A DNA stretch of 64,000 nt, taken from positions 239,993-303,992 of the forward strand of contig CBDEUM010000022.1 of assembly GCA_965242925.1 (NCBI GenBank). The letters are read 5' to 3'. The notes under the pieces were generated by a model, which had not been told where the DNA came from, ran no database searches, and saw nothing but the letters and a program-made list of their open reading frames with translations. Every line of letters starts with the position of its first letter. The first letter of the stretch is position 1. The stretch is from Roseibacillus sp. (GTDB lineage: Bacteria; Verrucomicrobiota; Verrucomicrobiia; Verrucomicrobiales; Akkermansiaceae). Shown piece after piece: positions 2,118 through 10,253 of the stretch. A program made the translations under genes and the position numbers.

Positions 2118-2843
2118 TCAAGCTCCCCGCATCAACGAAATCTCTGCCAGGCTCACCATTGAGTTGATCAACTCCTGGGCCTCCGTGTTCTTCAGGGTCT
2201 CCACCTTCACCGCCCGATCGAGCGTAAACTCCCCCGACCGTGTGCGCCGCAGCGAAGAGAGATGGCCGCCACAACCCAGCGTGGATCCAATATCGTGCGC
2301 ATAGCTCCGGACGTAGAATCCCTTTGAACAGTTCACCGTGAAGTCGATCTCGGGAATTGCGATCCGGGTAAGTTCATAGGCGGTCACGTAGACGGGCCGC
2401 GGATCCCGCTTCACTTCCTTCCCCTTGCGGGCGAGCTTGTAGAGAGGCACCCCATCCTTTTTGATCGCGGAGACCATGGGCGGGATCTGTTCGAATTTGC
2501 CCGAGTATTGCTCGAATGCGGACCGAACATCGTCCTCGCTCACCCCCGTCACCTCCCGCTCCTCAATTACTTCCCCTTCCGCATCCTGTGTGCTGGTGGT
2601 CGACCCCAACGTGACGGTGCCCACATACTCCTTGTCCTCGCTCATGAGAAGATCCTGAATCTTGGTCGCGCGACCCACCACCAGCATCAGGAGCCCTGTC
2701 GCCATCGGATCCAGGGTCCCGCAATGGCCAATCTTCTTGATGCCCATGGATCGTCGCGCAATGGCAACCACGTCGTGGGAGGTCATCCCGGGATCCTTAT
2801 CCACCAGGAGCACTCCACTTGGTACAATATTCGGTTCGTTCAT
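2118..2843 (-). CDS. truB: tRNA pseudouridine(55) synthase
   Basis: DKDPGMTSHDVV, KIGHCGTLDPMATG, QIPPMVSAIK and CSKGFYVRS motifs. Start set at ATG 2843, which overlaps the nrnA stop (ATGA). Confidence 0.95.
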   Translation of the reverse strand: MNEPNIVPSGVLLVDKDPGMTSHDVVAIARRSMGIKKIGHCGTLDPMATGLLMLVVGRATKIQDLLMSEDKEYVGTVTLGSTTSTQDAEGEVIEEREVTGVSEDDVRSAFEQYSGKFEQIPPMVSAIKKDGVPLYKLARKGKEVKRDPRPVYVTAYELTRIAIPEIDFTVNCSKGFYVRSYAHDIGSTLGCGGHLSSLRRTRSGEFTLDRAVKVETLKNTEAQELINSMVSLAEISLMRGA

Positions 2844-3826
2844 TCGCTCAAAGGAGAGAGAGTTGCCTGCGCCACCCGCAGGAGCCGTGCGACCGCATCT
2901 TCCAGTGGCCCCTGCGTCCGCGCCCCAGCCGCCAGGGCATGGCCCCCGCCTCCAAACTGCGCACAAATGTCACACACGTTGACGGAGGAATCCTTGGAAC
3001 GCAGCGAGAGCCGTACTTTCCCATCCGCCATCTCCTCCACAAAGGCGCAGACGAGAACCCCTCGGATCGCACGCAGGACGTCGATCAGCCCTTCACTGTC
3101 TCCTGCCTGCATTCCCACCTGTTCCTTTGTTTTGTGGGATAGTGTCCACCACGCAATCCTGCCATCGTCGGTTAACTGCGTGGTCTCAAGGAGCGCCCGC
3201 AGCAATTCCACTCTCCGATATGGATAATCGTGGTAAAGGCGTGCAGTCAGGGACGCGACATCAAGACCCCGACCCACCAGATCAGCCGCCATCCGGTGTG
3301 TGTGCACCGTCGTGTTGGAATACTGGAACGATCCCGTGTCAGTCGAGAGAGCAACATAGAGCGCATCACGCGCCACATCGGGCAGGGGCCACTCGAGCTC
3401 CCGGATAAGGCCGTAGAGAATCTCCCCCGTGGCGGCTGCACTGGAATCAATGAGCAAGTGGTCGCCATATTCTTCGTTCGAGATGTGGTGATCGATGTTA
3501 ACCCAGAGCTTCCCCTCTCCCAGCACCTCAAGACACCCCGCGCCAAGGCGCTCCCGGTTTGCCGTGTCGAGCGCGATGACCACCTCGGTCTCTAGGGGTT
3601 CAGACGGACGCTCGATCCCCTCCACGCCATTCAGAAAAAGCAGGTTATCCGGCACGCCATCCTCGTTGAGCGCACGGACCGATTTACCCAACGCTTCCAA
3701 TACGGCCTTGAGCGCCACCTCTGACCCGATCGCATCACCATCGGGACGGGCATGACTCAGGAGCACGAAGTGCTCGTGTGTGGAGACAATCCTGAAAAGC
3801 CCGGATGCTGTGATCGGTTGACCCAT
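2840..3826 (-). CDS. nrnA: DHH/DHHA1 phosphoesterase (NrnA-type oligoribonuclease/pAp phosphatase)
   Basis: HARPDGDAIGS, NIDHH, TDTGSF and GGGGHALAAG motifs; usual position between rbfA and truB. Confidence 0.9.
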   Translation of the reverse strand: MGQPITASGLFRIVSTHEHFVLLSHARPDGDAIGSEVALKAVLEALGKSVRALNEDGVPDNLLFLNGVEGIERPSEPLETEVVIALDTANRERLGAGCLEVLGEGKLWVNIDHHISNEEYGDHLLIDSSAAATGEILYGLIRELEWPLPDVARDALYVALSTDTGSFQYSNTTVHTHRMAADLVGRGLDVASLTARLYHDYPYRRVELLRALLETTQLTDDGRIAWWTLSHKTKEQVGMQAGDSEGLIDVLRAIRGVLVCAFVEEMADGKVRLSLRSKDSSVNVCDICAQFGGGGHALAAGARTQGPLEDAVARLLRVAQATLSPLSE

Positions 3827-4053
3827 GGACGGTTGGAACGTTCAGCGGGAAGGGCGCGGATTGTCTACAACACCCGCAGGATCGCAAGCAAAAGTAGGGC
3901 TTTATGAAGGAGCCGCACCGGGGACCGGAAATCCGCGATTCCGGGCCTTCCTCTATCCCTTTCACCTGCCTGGTGTGCGACAACAGAAACCACCGTATCG
4001 TGAATCCGAAGTCCGGCGGACAAACGATGAGGATCAAGCCCTCAGGAGCCGGG

Positions 4054-5190
4054 CTACTGTTCCGGCGTCTTTTCCAGACCTTCGCCTTGAGTCCGCCCTT
4101 CCGCGGCTTCCTCGATCCCCAGCCGTTCGGCGCGAAGATACGCGGTCCGGGCTTCCTTCTCTTTTCCCATTTCAGTCAGGCATTTCCCGAATTCGAGGTG
4201 TCCATGGCCAAAATCCGGCCATGCCCGCAAGAGCTGCGAATAGGAGATCTCGGCAAGCTCCAGATTTTCCTGCTCACGGTAAAACTGGGCGAGATAGTAA
4301 AGGGCCACCGCATTCTCAGGCTGATAGTTCAGGACACGGCGACAACGGTCTGCAGCCTCCTCGGTAACGCCCCCGTGGCGTTTCTCACCGGCAACCTGAT
4401 AAGCGCTATGGATCCAGAGGTCCCGGCTGTTGCTGTCAATGGCAGCCCCCATCAATTCCTCAAACAATTCGGCGATCTCCGGGGCCAGACGTTCCACCGA
4501 ATCAACGAAAGCATCCACGATTTCATAAACGCTGAACCGGCTCAGGATTCCCTTGCCGGTGGCAAACTCCCTGTCGCTGAACAGCAGATTGCGCATTCGC
4601 GCGTGGAGCAGGTTGTAGGCGGTATCGGACAGGAAGATGCGGAAATGGTGGCCATCGCGGGAGTGAGACTCAATCCGTTTCGCCAGGTTGATCGCGTAGC
4701 CCTGCATCTTGAATCCGGATTCCAACTGCCTCGCCCAGACAGTCCCGAAATTAATCCCAACCGCAATCTCAGCCGCAGCCGAGCGGCGTTCTACCCGCTC
4801 CCGGTTAAAGGGGGATGCGAACCAGGCAGCCTTGAGCGTAATCCCGAGCGTTGCGAGAAGGTAAACATCATTTGAGGGCTTGGCAGTGTGCATGAAAAAC
4901 ACCAGCTCGTCACCTATCACAAAGTACTCGTAATCCCGGACTCGCTCATACTTCCCGCGCAGATAATGCTCAAAAAAATGCTCACACTGGACACGCACCA
5001 CCTCGTGAAACGACTCAACGTAATCCGAATATTCCTTGAGCCCGAGAACACTGGCGAACACCGATGAATCGACCAGGTCCACGAACATGATTGCCGTGTC
5101 CAGGGGCCCTTCCCACTTTGGCTGACTGCCCGCTGGCGCGCTCACTTCCTCCCGGGATTCGCCCTCGCGCTTTGACGATGAACCCATCAC
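4054..5190 (-). CDS. Class III nucleotidyl cyclase (adenylate/guanylate cyclase fold) with C-terminal TPR repeats
   Basis: IMFVDLVDSS, VIGDEL, VGINFGTV, GYAINLAKRIES and IFLSDTAY motifs, followed by TPR-like helices (PENAVALYYLAQ, WPDFGHGHLEFGKCL). Confidence 0.8.
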   Translation of the reverse strand: MMGSSSKREGESREEVSAPAGSQPKWEGPLDTAIMFVDLVDSSVFASVLGLKEYSDYVESFHEVVRVQCEHFFEHYLRGKYERVRDYEYFVIGDELVFFMHTAKPSNDVYLLATLGITLKAAWFASPFNRERVERRSAAAEIAVGINFGTVWARQLESGFKMQGYAINLAKRIESHSRDGHHFRIFLSDTAYNLLHARMRNLLFSDREFATGKGILSRFSVYEIVDAFVDSVERLAPEIAELFEELMGAAIDSNSRDLWIHSAYQVAGEKRHGGVTEEAADRCRRVLNYQPENAVALYYLAQFYREQENLELAEISYSQLLRAWPDFGHGHLEFGKCLTEMGKEKEARTAYLRAERLGIEEAAEGRTQGEGLEKTPEQ

Positions 5191-5474
5191 TCGATCTCTG
5201 CTGGGTCAGGGACATGGGGGACAACCTCAGCTGGGTCAGGGACGTTGGGGACGATCTCGGCCGGGTCGGGAACATTAGTACCCTCTGCCGGGGGGGTGGC
5301 GCCAGGATCGCTTTCCTTCTCGTCTCCAATAACCTTCCCCGTCTCCGGCGACGAGGGACCAGCTCCCCCTCCCCTGCTCGTTGTGGACGACTCCTCACAG
5401 CCCGCCGAAAAAAGGGAAACCGCACACATCACCAGCATGCACCGGAACAGAAAAAAGAATGAATTGGTCATCAT
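5187..5474 (-). CDS. Small lipoprotein with a C-terminal 10-aa repeat (NVPDPAEIVP-like, x3)
   Basis: Hydrophobic signal ending in lipobox SAGC, a low-complexity linker and a 30-bp in-frame repeat. Its stop overlaps the cyclase start (GTGA at 5187-5190). Confidence 0.65.
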   Translation of the reverse strand: MMTNSFFFLFRCMLVMCAVSLFSAGCEESSTTSRGGGAGPSSPETGKVIGDEKESDPGATPPAEGTNVPDPAEIVPNVPDPAEVVPHVPDPAEIE

Positions 5475-5515
5475 TAGATAGGTGGCTTGGTGGTTATCCT
5501 GATCTGATTATTCCC

Positions 5516-5632
5516 CTCGTCCCAACTGCATGACGAGACAAATCAATCAAGGCTGTCGGATGTCATTACTACAAACGGAAAACCAGAGGTCCGTTTTCAT
5601 AATAATCGCAAATCCGACATAATATTGTCATG
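5516..5632 (-). promoter_or_regulatory. Candidate structured leader/ncRNA (nested inverted repeats)
   Basis: Helices 5554-5561/5612-5619, 5565-5572/5599-5606 (two G-U pairs on the minus strand), 5573-5579/5590-5596 and 5529-5534/5627-5632. Confidence 0.45.
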
Positions 5633-5786
5633 GCGCAACGGGCAGAAGCGACTTTCCATCTCAGTTCACCACAACACAAAACCCCGGCAGGATCGACGTA
5701 TGCTGCCACCCAGAGTTCCTCGCTGTGATCTCCGCCCGGGATCAGCAGTGGCGCGGGCAGGCGCACCTCGAAAACACCCCGGCCAC

Positions 5787-6146
5787 CTACTCCTCTTCTT
5801 CCTGGGGTGCCGTCGGCAACTCCGCCACCTTGTCGAGCAGGTTGACGATATCCACCCCCCGCACAACCGAGTCATCGCTGAGGAAACGCAGAACGGGCGT
5901 GTTCTTCAACACCACCCGTTTCATCACCCGGCCCTGAATGGATCCGTGTTCTCCATTGAGCCGTGAAATCACCTTCCCTTCGTGCCCGCCCAGCACTCCT
6001 ATAAAGACCTTCGCCTCCTTCAGGTCCTGCGAAACCTCCACCGCATTCACTGTCACCAGTGATCCGTCCCATTCGAAATCACGCTGCAGGACACCACTGA
6101 TCTCACGCTTCAGCAGTTCGTTTACCCTGTCAGTACGTCGCGACAT
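5787..6146 (-). CDS. rbfA: Ribosome-binding factor A
   Basis: RRTDRVNELLKREIS, VEVSQDLKEAKVF and TPVLRFLSD motifs; follows infB. Confidence 0.95.
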   Translation of the reverse strand: MSRRTDRVNELLKREISGVLQRDFEWDGSLVTVNAVEVSQDLKEAKVFIGVLGGHEGKVISRLNGEHGSIQGRVMKRVVLKNTPVLRFLSDDSVVRGVDIVNLLDKVAELPTAPQEEEE

Positions 6147-6195
6147 GGATCTCCCGAATGATAAATTACCAACGCCCCAAATGGCAGCCAGAGCG

Positions 6196-8295
6196 CTAAA
6201 GGGTCTGATCGATCTTCTCGAGCTCGTAGCATTCGATTACGTCGTCGACTTCGTACTCGTTGAACTCCCCAAGCCGGATTCCGCATTCGATGCCCTGTTT
6301 GACTTCCTCCACATCATCATTGATCCGCCGCAGGGTGGACATTTTCCCGTCAAATACGGGCGTGCCATCCCTCAACACACGCGCATGCGCCGTCCGGGTC
6401 ACCTTGCCGTCCGCGACCAGGCAGCCCGCTGCCCGTCCCCGCTTGACCTTGAAAATCTGCTTCACCTCGGCATGCCCGAGAATGTTCTCTCGCAGCTCCG
6501 GTTCCAGCAGTCCCAACATGGCATCCTTCACCTGATCGATGAGTTCGTAGACAATCGAATAAAGCTTTATCTGCACACCCTCACGCTTGGCACCCTTTAC
6601 CGCGTTGCTCTCCACCTTCACGTTGAATCCCAGCACCACCGCGTCCGAACTGCTGGCCAGCAGGATGTCGGACTCGCTGATCGATCCAGCCGCCGCATGG
6701 ATAAAATTGACCTCCACCTTGTCGGACTCCACATCGCCAATCGCCCCCTTGATTGCCTCAACCGACCCCTGCACGTCACATTTCAGGATCAACTTGAGCA
6801 CCACCTTCTGGCCTCCTTCAACCATAGCCAGCATATCTTCCATGCGGCTTTTCCTGGGACGCTCCAGACGCTCCTGCCGACGCTCAAGCTGCCGCTCGTC
6901 GCTCAGCTTCTTGGCCGCCCTTTCGTGCTCCATGGCCACCAGTTCATCCCCAACGTTGGGCAGTTCGGCAAATCCAAGCACTTCCACCGGGATGGCTGGA
7001 CCGGCCTCCTCCACCTGCTCGTTCCGATCGTTGAGGAGCGACTTCACCTTACCCGCATAGGGGCCGCAGATAAACGGGGTGCCTACTTCAAGGGTTCCCG
7101 TCTCCACTATCACGGTGGCGGTCGGACCCTTCCCGGGCTGCACCTTGGCCTCAATCACGGCGGCACGCGCATTCGCTTCGGGATTCGCCTTCAGCTCCAG
7201 CACCTCCGCCTGCAATGCCATTAACTCGGCCAGTTCGTCCATTCCCTGGCCGGTGATGGCCGAGACTTCCACCGTCTCCGTGTTGCCCCCCAGATCTGTT
7301 GACATGAGGTCCTGCTCCATGAGCTGAGTCTTCACCTTCATGGGGTCGGCACCCGCCACATCGCACTTGTTGATCGCTACAATGATGGTCTTGCCCGCTG
7401 CCTTGGCGTGACTGATCGCCTCCCTGGTCTGCGGCATGATTCCGTCGTCGGCCGCCACCACCAGCACCACGATGTCCGTGACGTCCGCGCCCCGGGCCCG
7501 CATCTCCGTGAAAATCGCGTGCCCCGGTGTATCGATAAAGGTAATCGGGCGCCCTTCATGCTCCACCCGGTAGGCCCCGATGTGCTGTGTGATCCCGCCG
7601 GCTTCCCCGTCCACGACTTTCGACTTGCGGACATAGTCCAGAAGAGAGGTCTTGCCGTGATCAACGTGTCCCATGAAGGTGATGATGGGCGCCCGCAGTT
7701 CGAGCTTTTCGGCAGGCTCATGTTCCTCCGGCTCGGGCTCCTCGATGACTTCCTCCACCTTGTGGACTCCACCACCCTTCTCGCGCTTCTCGCGTTCAAA
7801 GACAAAACCGTGCTGCTCGCAGACATTTTCCGCCACTTCCGGTTCGATGGCCTGATTAGGCGCCACGAACACCTCCAACTGGATGAGATCCTTCATGATC
7901 TCAAACGGTTTCAGCCCCATCATCTCCGCAAGCACGCTCACGATGATGGGCGGCTTAATGCTGATGGTGTTTCCTTCAACCACTCCGATTTCCTCCTCCG
8001 CCTCGCCCTCTTCCAAAGGTTCCCCGCTCACGACAAAGTCCGGATCCTGGACCTCATCCGTCAGCTTCGAAATGCTCGGGAGCTGTTTCTTGCCGGACTT
8101 CTCGGTTTTTCGGACCGCCGCCGCCTTCTTCTGTTCATCCTCATCGATGATGTCGAGCGCCTCGTCCTTCTTATCCTGAACGGTCTTCTGCTCGGCTGCC
8201 TGAGCCCGCTGCCGTTCACGACGCGACGGCTTGTTCTGTTCGTCGACCAAGTCGAGAACTTCCTTCTTTTTGTCGCTGTCGCCCTTGTCCGGCAT
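6196..8295 (-). CDS. infB: Translation initiation factor IF-2
   Basis: [42 protein letters not shown] and ECGI motifs. Confidence 0.98.
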
Positions 8296-8328
8296 GGTGA
8301 CCCTCTAAACCTCTCTAACTTACCGTGA

Positions 8329-10040
8329 TTACGAATCGTCGGCAGCAGATGCAGATTTCTTGTTCTCTTCCTTCTCCGTGGCTGGTTCTTCCTCCGCGGC
8401 AGGTTCTTCCTCCGTGGCTGGTTCTTCCTCCGTGGCAGGTTCTTCCTCCGTGGCAGGTTCTTCCTCCGCGGCAGGTTCTTCCTCCGTGGCAGGTTCTTCC
8501 TCCGTGGCAGGTTCTCCTCCGTGGCAGGTTCTTCCTCCGTGGCAGGTTCTTCCTCCGTGGCAGGTTCTTCCTCCGTGGCAGGCTCTTCCTCCGTGGCAGG
8601 CTCTTCCTCCGTGGCAGGTTCTTCCTCCGTGGCAGGTTCTTCCTCCGTGGCAGGTTCTTCCTCCGTGGCAGGTTCTTCCTCCGTGGCAGGTTCCTCCTCC
8701 GTGGCAGGTTCTTCCTCCGCGGCAGGTTCTTCCTCCGCGGCAGGTTCTTCCTCCGCGGCAGGTTCTTCCTCCCGGGCAGGTTTTCCGCTGAGGGATTGCG
8801 CCTGGTCGAGAATCTTCTGGGCTTCCTCTTCTGTAGACTCCAGCGACTGAGCGATGTAGTCCACCGGCATCTGCAACACCATGTCCGAAGACACACCCCC
8901 GGCACGGTAAAGTTTGTCGGCGATCTGCGGATCTACGCCCAATTCCTCCGCCAGTCCGATGGCGGCATCAGTTACCCGCGCCTCGAACTGCTCGTGCTGA
9001 CTCTCGTCCTTGCGCACCTGCACGTCCCAGTTCACCAGCTTGGAAGTGAGCCGCGCATTCTGTCCCCGGCGACCGATTGCCTTGCTCAGGTCTTCCTCAT
9101 CCACGGTCACATTGATCACCTTGTTCTCCTGGTCCAGGGTGATGGACCGGATCAGTGCCGGTTTGAGGGCGTCGGTCACGAAGGGTTCCGGTTCGTCACT
9201 CCAGCGGATGATGTCCACCTTCTCGTTGTTGAGTTCCCGCACGATGTTCTTCACCCGCGCTCCGCGCAGGCCGACGCAGGCACCGACCGGATCCACCTTT
9301 CCATCATTGCTGAAAACTGCCACCTTGGTCCGGTAGCCGGCCTCCCGCGCGATCCCACGGATCTCCACCGTGTGATCCGAAATCTCGCTCACCTCCGCCT
9401 CAAAAAGTCTTCGCACGAAATTCGGGTGACTGCGGGAGAGCATAATCTCCGGCCCCCGCAACTCGTTGTCCACCGAAACCACATACGCCCGGATACGATC
9501 TCCGACGTTGTAGTCCTCGGTCGAGACTCGTTCCCGCGACGGCATGCGGGCTTCGAATTTTCCGAGGTCGATCATGACATCGTTCTTCTCAAAGCGCCGC
9601 ACCGCTCCACTCACGATGTCGCCGGCGCGATCCTTGAACTCGTCGTAGATCTTCTCCTTCTCGGCCTGGCGCAACCGCTGCATCATGGTCTGCTTGGCAG
9701 TCTGCACCGCAATACGCCCGAAATTCTTTGGCGTCACGTTGAACTCCAGGGGATCATTCAGCTGGACCTCCGGATTCTTCCGACTCGCGAGGGAGATCGG
9801 CACCTCGTTGAACTTGTCCTGATGGTCGTCATCGGCCACCACCCGGAGGGTCGCAAAAATCCGCGTCTCCCCTTGCTTGGTATCCACTTCCGCCCGGAGC
9901 TCTTCAATATCCTCCGCCCCCGGAACCATCCGCCGGTAAGCTGACAAGAAGGCATTCTCAAGAGCCTCGACCACCTTCTCGCGCTCGATGCTCTTTTCCT
10001 TTTCGTAGAATTCTATGAGGGCGACGAGGTCGTTCGTCAT
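8329..10040 (-). CDS. nusA: Transcription termination/antitermination factor NusA with an acidic repeat tail; 1-bp frameshift at ~8515 as sequenced
   Basis: FGRIAVQTAKQ, LSRSHP, AREAGYRTKVAV, DPVGACVG and AIGRRGQNARL motifs. Start MTNDL at 10040. Restoring one base gives ...EEEPATEKEENKKSASAADDS* with TAA at 8329-8331; uncorrected, the ORF runs to 8061. Confidence 0.93.
8374..8786. repeat. Coding tandem repeat, 18-bp unit ctccgtggcaggttcttc x22 plus one degenerate unit, encoding (EEEPAT/A)n
   Basis: Units read directly from the sequence; the unit at 8500-8516 is 17 bp. Confidence 0.97.
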
Positions 10041-10070
10041 GATCTTCTGATCGTTCTGGTCTGGGGACGC

Positions 10071-10100
10071 AAAAGAGCGGGTCGTGGGAACCCACTCTTC
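10071..10100 (-). promoter_or_regulatory. rimP/nusA-leader-type attenuator hairpin
   Basis: Minus strand AAGAGUGGGU-ucccacg-ACCCGCUCUU-UU: a 10-bp stem running into a U tract, 30 nt before the nusA start. Confidence 0.75.
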
Positions 10101-10130
10101 GAAAGCGTCCAGAGTTGTTCTGTTGCGGTG

Positions 10131-10159
10131 GCTATAGGGATGCTCCCCCCATGAATCAA
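10131..10159 (-). promoter_or_regulatory. Putative sigma70-type promoter of the nusA operon
   Basis: TTGATT-N17-TATAGC on the minus strand, just upstream of the leader hairpin. Confidence 0.5.
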
Positions 10160-10253
10160 GACAAAAGACCGGCCCGACCATTCACTCCACCCGGCCCATG
10201 CGGGCCCGTGAAACCGCTCGGTTCACCCTCCCCGGCATCCTGCCTGCCGGTTC

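Follow-up and report, generated by a model that had tools for sequence, protein, structure and literature searches.

A small lipoprotein with a repeated C-terminal tail and a class III cyclase–TPR protein as a candidate two-gene signalling module in Roseibacillus

We analyzed a stretch of 64,000 nt from Roseibacillus sp. (contig CBDEUM010000022.1, positions 239,993 to 303,992 of the forward strand; hereafter the window) and focused on two genes on its minus strand that lie between rbfA and an nrnA-like gene. The upstream gene (5187..5474) encodes a small lipoprotein of 95 amino acids (aa) with a signal peptide, the lipobox ..LFSAGC with Cys26 and a disordered, acidic and Pro-rich mature part, which ends in a C-terminal tail (residues 67-95, 5190..5276) of three tandem VPDPAE(I/V) copies. 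The downstream gene (4054-5190 in the list of open reading frames, ORFs) encodes a protein of 378 aa, in which a class III cyclase homology domain (residues 27-227, 4510..5112; Pfam PF00211 and an AlphaFold2 model) is followed by a helical repeat domain of the tetratricopeptide repeat (TPR) type (residues 237-370, eight helices, 4081..4482; Pfam and the same model). Stop and start codons of the two genes overlap by GTGA at 5187..5190, an arrangement that an earlier note on this DNA had described and that we found again in the ORF list and in the plus-strand letters tcac; an alternative cyclase start, with ATG as codon 2, would give the overlap TGATG. The lipoprotein tail recurs on exported proteins encoded beside orthologues of this cyclase, and a modelled complex places it in a cleft that the cyclase domain forms with the TPR domain.

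The tail is repetitive at the nucleotide level as well, with a 30-nt period in 2.7 copies at 5196-5275 as reported by Tandem Repeats Finder. The three copies vary at synonymous sites (CCC/CCT, CCG/CCA and GCC/GCT/GCA), so that selection appears to act on the tail peptide. No Pfam, NCBIfam or PADLOC family matched the 95-aa lipoprotein, and an alignment of 18 partner proteins (A3) contains only four invariant columns, namely C26, P89, D90 and P91. Across the partners the tail motif is found in tandem with one to four copies, and in some of them up to about 16 residues follow PDPxx[L/I]. In the host genome the strict tail pattern occurs in 8 of 49,444 ORFs, among which only this lipoprotein resembles a real gene.

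For the analysis of linkage between tail and cyclase we used 54 loci that carry an orthologue of the cyclase at 39-99% identity; six others were dropped, as the match begins at a contig edge (L054, L060, L098 and L125), covers only 123 residues (L129) or duplicates another locus (L059, a duplicate of L058). We counted a locus as linked if an ORF on the same strand ends between -400 and +130 nt from the cyclase match and carries PD[PAE]..[LIVM] within its last 25 residues. This was the case in 37 of the 54 loci, compared to 7 of 4073 other ORFs of those loci. Three of these seven background matches are genuine partners placed otherwise, either downstream of the cyclase (L065 and L127) or 2.8 kb upstream (L117). 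In total, a tail-bearing exported partner with the pattern [V/I/P]PDPxx[L/I] is thus present at 40 of 54 loci, with a residual background of about 4/4073. As a control we examined 61 loci of cyclase relatives at 25-35% identity, of which a single one shows the tail pattern, in a form that looks spurious. Linkage with the lipoprotein, a check that the earlier note had named beforehand, holds down to 39-50% identity, and in distant loci we again found an exported protein with a C-terminal [V/I/P]PDPxx[L/I] directly upstream of the cyclase. The bodies of the partners are unrelated: they comprise lipoproteins of 49-138 aa, a lipoprotein of 158 aa, a Gly-zipper lipoprotein (L057) and multihaem proteins of the Cytochrome_C554 type (L132 with 438 aa, and L121 with a degenerate tail). 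The presence of the tail on unrelated bodies suggests that it is the tail and not the protein body that is linked to the cyclase. Every tail-bearing partner that could be classified has an export signal or is a c-type cytochrome, whereas the cyclase has no signal.

Some of these loci have an unusual architecture. At the Binatia-type locus the PDP tail (..AAPVPDPDKLPK) is carried by a small ORF downstream of the cyclase (L065:6402-6599 and L127:4402-4599), and the upstream gene there encodes a caspase-like lipoprotein (Peptidase_C14) with the end ..GPPDTDNLRR. In the metagenome contig of L117 (2-211 and 369-2595), about 2.8 kb with repeated Arg/Gly-rich ORFs separates the gene of the tailed lipoprotein from the cyclase gene, which may represent an insertion into the pair.

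Next, we investigated the cyclase–TPR protein. For this purpose we used alignments of 33 family members over the full protein (A1) and of 36 sequences over the catalytic domain (A2). The Pfam family Guanylate_cyc (PF00211) matched residues 33-199 with 25.8 bits (cut-off 21.9) and TPR_19 matched with 28.7 bits (cut-off 25); together TPR_19, TPR_16 and TPR_17 cover residues 277-356. Matches in NCBIfam were limited to TPR families and LipJ, all of them far under the cut-offs. A single-sequence phmmer search against the Protein Data Bank (PDB) found TPR proteins only, with the TPR of OGT at E 3.5e-13 and cyclases at E>=0.2, whereas a profile of the catalytic domain (A2) matched Pseudomonas aeruginosa CyaB (3r5g) at E 2.5e-11. 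The AlphaFold2 model built from the 33 family members has a mean predicted local distance difference test (pLDDT) value of 90.3 and a predicted template modelling score (pTM) of 0.87. In this model residues 27-227 form a class III cyclase fold, and the eight TPR-type helices (237-370) begin ten residues past the last cyclase strand. The best VIA match is CyaB (3r5g_B, Z 21.0, root-mean-square deviation 2.9 over 186 residues); the top matches of Foldseek and VIA are all class III adenylyl or guanylyl cyclases, tied at Z 18-21, and the top 50 VIA entries are class III cyclases throughout. No uridylate or cytidylate cyclase is among these 50 entries listed, which is no evidence of dissimilarity. 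A search of the host genome (89.9% complete) with the PF00211 profile at E<=0.001 gave no match, this gene included, and is weak evidence on other cyclases.

The cyclase domain carries D38, G93-D94, N168, K171-R172 and K213-G214. The metal-binding residues D38 and D94 are invariant in A1 and A2 and align with the Asp positions of CyaB; R172 and K213 are conserved to 100% and N168 to 97% among the 33 sequences of A1, and the catalytic residues are also retained in relatives from other phyla that are only 25-35% identical. The reading of the earlier note, by which the enzyme keeps both metal Asp residues and the Asn/Arg pair of the motif, is thus upheld, and so is its remark that the cyclase lacks a transmembrane segment, as no hydrophobic segment was found. 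An active cyclase, which had also been proposed, is plausible in view of the conservation of every metal, transition-state and phosphate residue, and judging from the sequence catalysis is probably retained. A different picture emerged for the base-selecting positions. The profile alignment of A2 with CyaB places F90 opposite the adenine Lys of CyaB (DKFVGD) and K161 opposite its Thr (YTIIG), in agreement with the hand alignment that had put Phe and Lys there. The canonical pair (Lys with Asp/Thr for ATP, Glu with Cys for GTP) is absent, which concerns the subtype and not the membership in the superfamily. However, few columns of the family alignment vary as strongly as columns 90 and 161, which have top-residue frequencies of 0.21 and 0.27, and because both vary freely and are not under selection, F90 and K161 define no new specificity. 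The non-canonical nucleotide specificity suggested earlier can therefore not be read from these two residues. The product is not predictable from sequence, and as the base pocket is uninformative, cAMP is only the default guess.

In comparison with the class III cyclases CyaB (3r5g), Synechocystis Cya2 (2w01) and Spirulina CyaC (1wc1), the protein shares the fold (Z 19.9-21.0), both metal Asp residues, the Asn-x-x-x-Arg pair and the Lys-Gly phosphate loop. It differs from them in being very divergent (25.8 bits in Pfam, no cyclase below E 0.2 in phmmer against the PDB), in having a family signature of its own, G[YF]AIN[LV]AKR.E..SR.G, in its unconserved base positions F90/K161 and in its sensor, a C-terminal TPR domain packed on the catalytic domain. 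In STAND-type regulators like Rv0386 an NB-ARC/AAA ATPase domain lies between cyclase and TPR, and a C-terminal helix-turn-helix domain follows. The present protein, in contrast, has only 378 aa, contains Guanylate_cyc and TPR as its only Pfam domains and starts its helices ten residues after the last cyclase strand.

To relate the tail to this architecture, we modelled the full cyclase (as in A1) together with residues 27-95 of the mature lipoprotein (as in A3) in three runs and with three controls. The interface score ipSAE was 0.85, 0.87 and 0.85, while the best of the three controls gave 0.01; the calibration mark of this score, passed by 116 of 157 solved complexes and by 2 of 215 mismatched pairs, is rough here, as our own alignments were used. 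The runs share at least 41% of their contacts. Only the last ten residues of the lipoprotein (86-95, PHVPDPAEIE), which form its last tail copy and would be the predicted ligand, contact the cyclase with confidence. On the side of the catalytic domain the modelled interface comprises residues 76-77, 104, 106-107, 110-111, 198-201, 228-230 and 233, and on the TPR helices residues 266, 269-270, 298, 329 and 333. The predicted cleft is walled by the end of helix 51-76, the start of helix 105-124, the segments 198-201 and 228-233 and the TPR helices. Among the catalytic-domain contacts, the conservation of Y110, R200, N201 and F228 is restricted to the tail-linked clade and does not extend to distant relatives (4 of 15 contacts compared to 21 of 196 other positions). 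The model supports, but falls short of showing, binding of the tail in the cleft between cyclase and TPR domain. Together with the conserved partner tail, it lends concrete support to the regulation through TPRs that had been suggested in the earlier note.

The predicted binding site invites comparison with two groups of known systems. The C2 chain of mammalian adenylyl cyclase (1azs_B) matches our model at Z 18.3, and the tail in our complex touches the catalytic domain where its second helix ends (76-77) and its third begins (104-111). By position this would be the groove between helices 2 and 3 (alpha2'/alpha3'), the site of Gs-alpha and Gi-alpha on mammalian cyclases. Tesmer and colleagues (1997) reportedly located the Gs-alpha site in this groove of the C2 domain (1azs). 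Gs-alpha uses the switch helix of a GTPase, whereas the ligand proposed here is a ten-residue peptide that would also be clamped by the TPR helices. TPR domains are in turn established receptors for C-terminal peptides, as in TPR co-chaperones, which bind the EEVD of Hsp70 and Hsp90, and in PEX5, which binds PTS1. The likeness lies in a TPR protein that is predicted to bind a short acidic motif at the extreme C-terminus; the motif here is PDPxx[L/I], and the putative pocket is shared with the catalytic domain.

In order to gain further insight into the history of the pair we examined its distribution. The full-length family comprises 63 clusters at 41-98% identity in a set of 5.8 billion proteins. 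Among 201 sampled genomes of the order, a true orthologue is found only in the host and one other genome, with four further matches being TPR-only. In the genus, the cyclase is recorded in 10 of 20 genomes. The order rbfA-lipoprotein-cyclase occurs in 7 of the 20 genus genomes, and in 10 of the 20 rbfA is directly followed by nrnA. In three of those seven (G203, G208 and G217) a lipoprotein of about 850 aa without Pfam family also precedes nrnA, and in G213 and G215 the slot between rbfA and nrnA contains only the large lipoprotein. G215 carries the pair on another contig; the cyclase of G213 begins another contig after a lipoprotein fragment of only 22 residues, with an in-frame TGA present. 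G216 holds an internally deleted cyclase remnant (L045:6145-6547, G216:C107) in which residues ~14-73 and ~313-369 are joined in one frame of 185 aa, away from rbfA and adjoining a copper amine oxidase gene and two SPFH/Band 7 genes. A tree of the 20 genomes (C-terminus of infB plus rbfA, 335 columns, midpoint root) groups eight genomes without the pair into one nested clade and two as an outgroup, with the pair-bearing lineages as a paraphyletic grade. Given this topology and a GC content of the pair equal to that of its flanks, the pair appears to have been resident in the genus for a long time, with one main clade-level loss, and does not look like a recent insertion, so that its earlier description as 'inserted' in the operon has to be revised. 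Orthologues at 39-48% identity, from metagenome-assembled genomes labelled Sumerlaeota, Luteolibacter and Binatia, lie away from rbfA, nrnA, infB and truB.

The large lipoproteins encoded between rbfA and nrnA, which we found in five genomes of the genus irrespective of the presence of the pair, have about 840-960 aa, no Pfam family and 47-73% mutual identity (L038:3904-6507, L039:5122-7647, L040:5350-7893, L041:2856-5501 and L043:6399-9269). We considered them as alternative ligands and rejected them, as they have no PDP tail at their end.

The genes flanking the pair in the window are housekeeping genes, all on the minus strand and named after Pfam matches to the ORF list: nusA (8061-10181), infB (6196-8295) and rbfA (5787-6146) upstream, and the nrnA-like DHH/DHHA1 gene (2840-3826), truB (2118-2966) and ribF (1154-2098) downstream. 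An 18-nt tandem array (8374-8786, 23.1 copies, 95% matches) encodes an acidic (EEPATE)n C-terminal extension of NusA. Inside this array the translation of the nusA ORF changes from EEPATE to NLPRRK, which is another frame of the array unit, and continues past the start of infB; this change of frame points to a 1-nt slip there, which may be genuine or an artefact of the assembly.

Between rbfA and the lipoprotein gene lies an intergenic leader on the minus strand (5475..5786), which possibly contains a promoter of the pair's own. We noted two sigma-70-like sites on its minus strand (5631->5602 and 5536->5507), both of them matches to the consensus only; Rfam gave no match in the window at 3600-6300 (E<=1). 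Contigs from RNA libraries span the junction between lipoprotein and cyclase gene in three runs from three studies (X1 record 5: 5098-5551; X3 record 18: 5112-5414; X5 record 22: 4988-5203), although DNA carry-over is possible. These contigs cover parts of both genes and are silent on expression level, strand and transcript ends, and gaps in their cover are meaningless. They are compatible with a co-transcription of the pair, short of proof. Contig ends of X1, X3 and X5 cluster within 13 nt (5541-5553) between the two sigma-70-like sites, a weak hint that the pair's own transcript may start there.

From the data described above we propose, with a probability of roughly 0.5, that lipoprotein and cyclase form a two-gene signalling module in which a cleft of the cytoplasmic cyclase binds the tail of its partner and the occupancy of this cleft reports the export load of the precursor. 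The overlapping genes would deliver both proteins together, and the cleft between cyclase and TPR domain would hold the [V/I/P]PDPxx[L/I] tail at the C-terminus of the exported protein from the neighbouring gene. Because the partners leave the cytoplasm while the cyclase lacks a signal, tail and cyclase should meet only on the precursor, before or during export. The occupancy of the cleft might then measure the dwell time of the precursor in the cytoplasm, and with it the load of the Sec or lipoprotein pathway, and would tune the synthesis of a cyclic nucleotide. This signal would most likely be read by the single stand-alone protein for binding of cyclic nucleoside monophosphates (cNMP) in the genome: we found one PF00027 protein in the host, 160 aa long and without DNA-binding domain (G000:C30:77123-77602; L174:3124-3606). 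Of the genus genomes, all 9 that contain a full-length match to the cyclase also encode a PF00027-type protein, compared to 5 of the 11 others. The host gene of the cNMP-binding protein comes after an ORF of 659 aa. Of the two parts of the earlier proposal of a new signalling or defence module, signalling is thus strengthened by the conserved tail and, at the level of a model, by the docking. A more specific version, in which a portable PDP tag on unrelated exported proteins is gripped by the cyclase–TPR protein whenever the precursor lingers, and the cNMP output serves as a post-translational secretion monitor, is tentative.

Several observations weigh against our proposal. The main difficulty is that lipoproteins and c-type cytochromes act outside the cytoplasm, so that binding to the cyclase would require a hypothetical precursor pool. 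The tail pattern was drawn up after examples had been viewed, and the figure of 40/54 overstates the independent cases, as many loci are near-duplicates that represent roughly ten distinct lineages. Of the 14 loci without a strict tail, two (L106 and L128) have the contig end too near the start of the locus and two have degenerate tails (AEPIDLK in L121 and VADPRKI in L126), while seven (L061, L063, L064, L120 and L122-L124) have no tail, yet their cyclases retain R200, N201 and F228. Upstream of the cyclase, this last clade has genes for secreted Pro-rich proteins with DUF4384, one or two per locus, and L061, L063 and L064 additionally have a caspase-like gene nearby. On the side of the model, the fold of the tail is uncertain (partner pLDDT 41), the complex covers a single pair, that of the window, and the clade-specific enrichment of 4/15 contacts is modest. 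The conservation of the interface (0.665 compared to 0.609 elsewhere) was equalled by 1592 of 10,000 random sets and is not significant. Finally, the co-distribution with the receptor rests largely on one clade-level loss, and two outgroup genomes have a cNMP receptor without the cyclase.

Such points leave room for an ordinary orphan adenylyl cyclase with a TPR interaction domain, next to a protein whose PDP tail has a periplasmic role in processing, sorting or envelope binding. It is favoured by the nature of the partners, which are true envelope proteins carrying domains of their own, by an interface whose conservation does not significantly exceed that of the remaining protein and by the 14 loci out of 54 in which no strict tail is present; in addition, Rv1900c and Rv0386 are cyclases with non-canonical base residues that nevertheless produce cAMP. 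We still regard this explanation as rather unlikely, because the tail is almost confined to the clade (40/54 compared to 1/61 in distant loci and about 4/4073 background ORFs), seems to be linked itself, being found on unrelated bodies, and docks at 0.85 compared to 0.01 for the controls. The layout of the gene pair brings to mind an arrest sequence of the SecM, VemP and MifM kind, where export would free a stalled ribosome and thereby set the translation of the cyclase. Monitoring substrates are described, in the portion of the source used here, with RAPP-like, KYxIW, LPPP and NSP-stop motifs (10.1101/2023.09.02.556018). The likeness to SecM, VemP, MifM and RAPP consists in an exported protein with a conserved C-terminal motif directly upstream of the controlled gene and in the idea of export flux; the anatomy of export signal, variable body, conserved motif before the stop and tightly coupled downstream gene is the same. 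The architecture of a monitoring substrate is indeed found in our pair, with the lipobox Cys and PDP as the only invariant columns of A3 and with the stop/start overlap. However, PDPxxL differs from the motifs given in that portion, and the downstream gene encodes a cyclase in place of secA, secDF or yidC, that is, no Sec or YidC component. The motif is also tandemly repeated one to four times, L065 and L127 have the tail ORF on the downstream side of the cyclase and L117 has it at a distance of 2.8 kb, some partners exceed 400 aa and have their own domains (L132, 438 aa), and the docking model accounts for the tail without a ribosome, with a protein cleft and not the ribosome tunnel as the proposed reader. 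Translational arrest therefore appears improbable to us.

Two further explanations were considered. If the cyclase domain were catalytically unused, the TPR protein could serve as a chaperone or escort that holds the C-terminus of the partner until export; TPR proteins do act as secretion chaperones, NCBIfam families of the SycD/LcrH type and SctY score 12-14 bits here (far under their cut-offs), and the base-pocket residues are unconserved. The invariance of the metal, transition-state and phosphate residues in 33-36 sequences, which extends to the relatives at 25-35% identity, is hard to explain without catalysis, and makes an escort function very improbable. An anti-phage signalling module, either Pycsar-like or a new cyclase-based defence, would fit the patchy presence (2 of 201 order genomes with that of the window counted, 10 of 20 genus genomes) and the atypical base-selecting residues; PycC of Pycsar is likewise a class III-type cyclase with an unusual base pocket. 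But neither protein matched PADLOC at E<=1, no effector gene adjoins the pair in any context examined, its GC content equals that of the flanks, the distribution in the genus fits one clade-level loss, and the conserved partner is an exported protein and not a TIR or transmembrane effector. The earlier observation that no Pycsar-type effector adjoins the cyclase proved correct, the neighbours being the lipoprotein gene and nrnA in the window and genes of envelope proteins or unrelated genes elsewhere. The defence part of the earlier proposal thus found no support, and we consider it scarcely credible.

Class III cyclases with TPR sensors are already known, and what would be new here is a ligand encoded by the neighbouring gene that takes the form of a portable C-terminal tag on exported proteins. 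In literature searches, assessed by their listings, we found no published account of a lipoprotein/cyclase–TPR pair or of a TPR-cyclase that reads the tail of a partner. For the annotation of cyclases our data call for caution, as odd residues at the two textbook base-selecting positions are no sign of a new specificity where these columns drift within a family. The regulators of bacterial class III cyclases with TPR sensors are largely unknown, whereas the likely ligand in the present case is encoded beside the enzyme. Since this likely ligand is a ten-residue peptide, binding, activation and product are directly testable with a synthetic peptide. If the module acts as a secretion monitor, it would follow the logic of SecM and VemP, with the difference that the tag is read by an enzyme instead of the ribosome. 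If the tail is read on the unexported precursor, this would be a new way of sensing envelope-biogenesis stress, which would tie the Sec and lipoprotein pathways to cyclic-nucleotide signalling.

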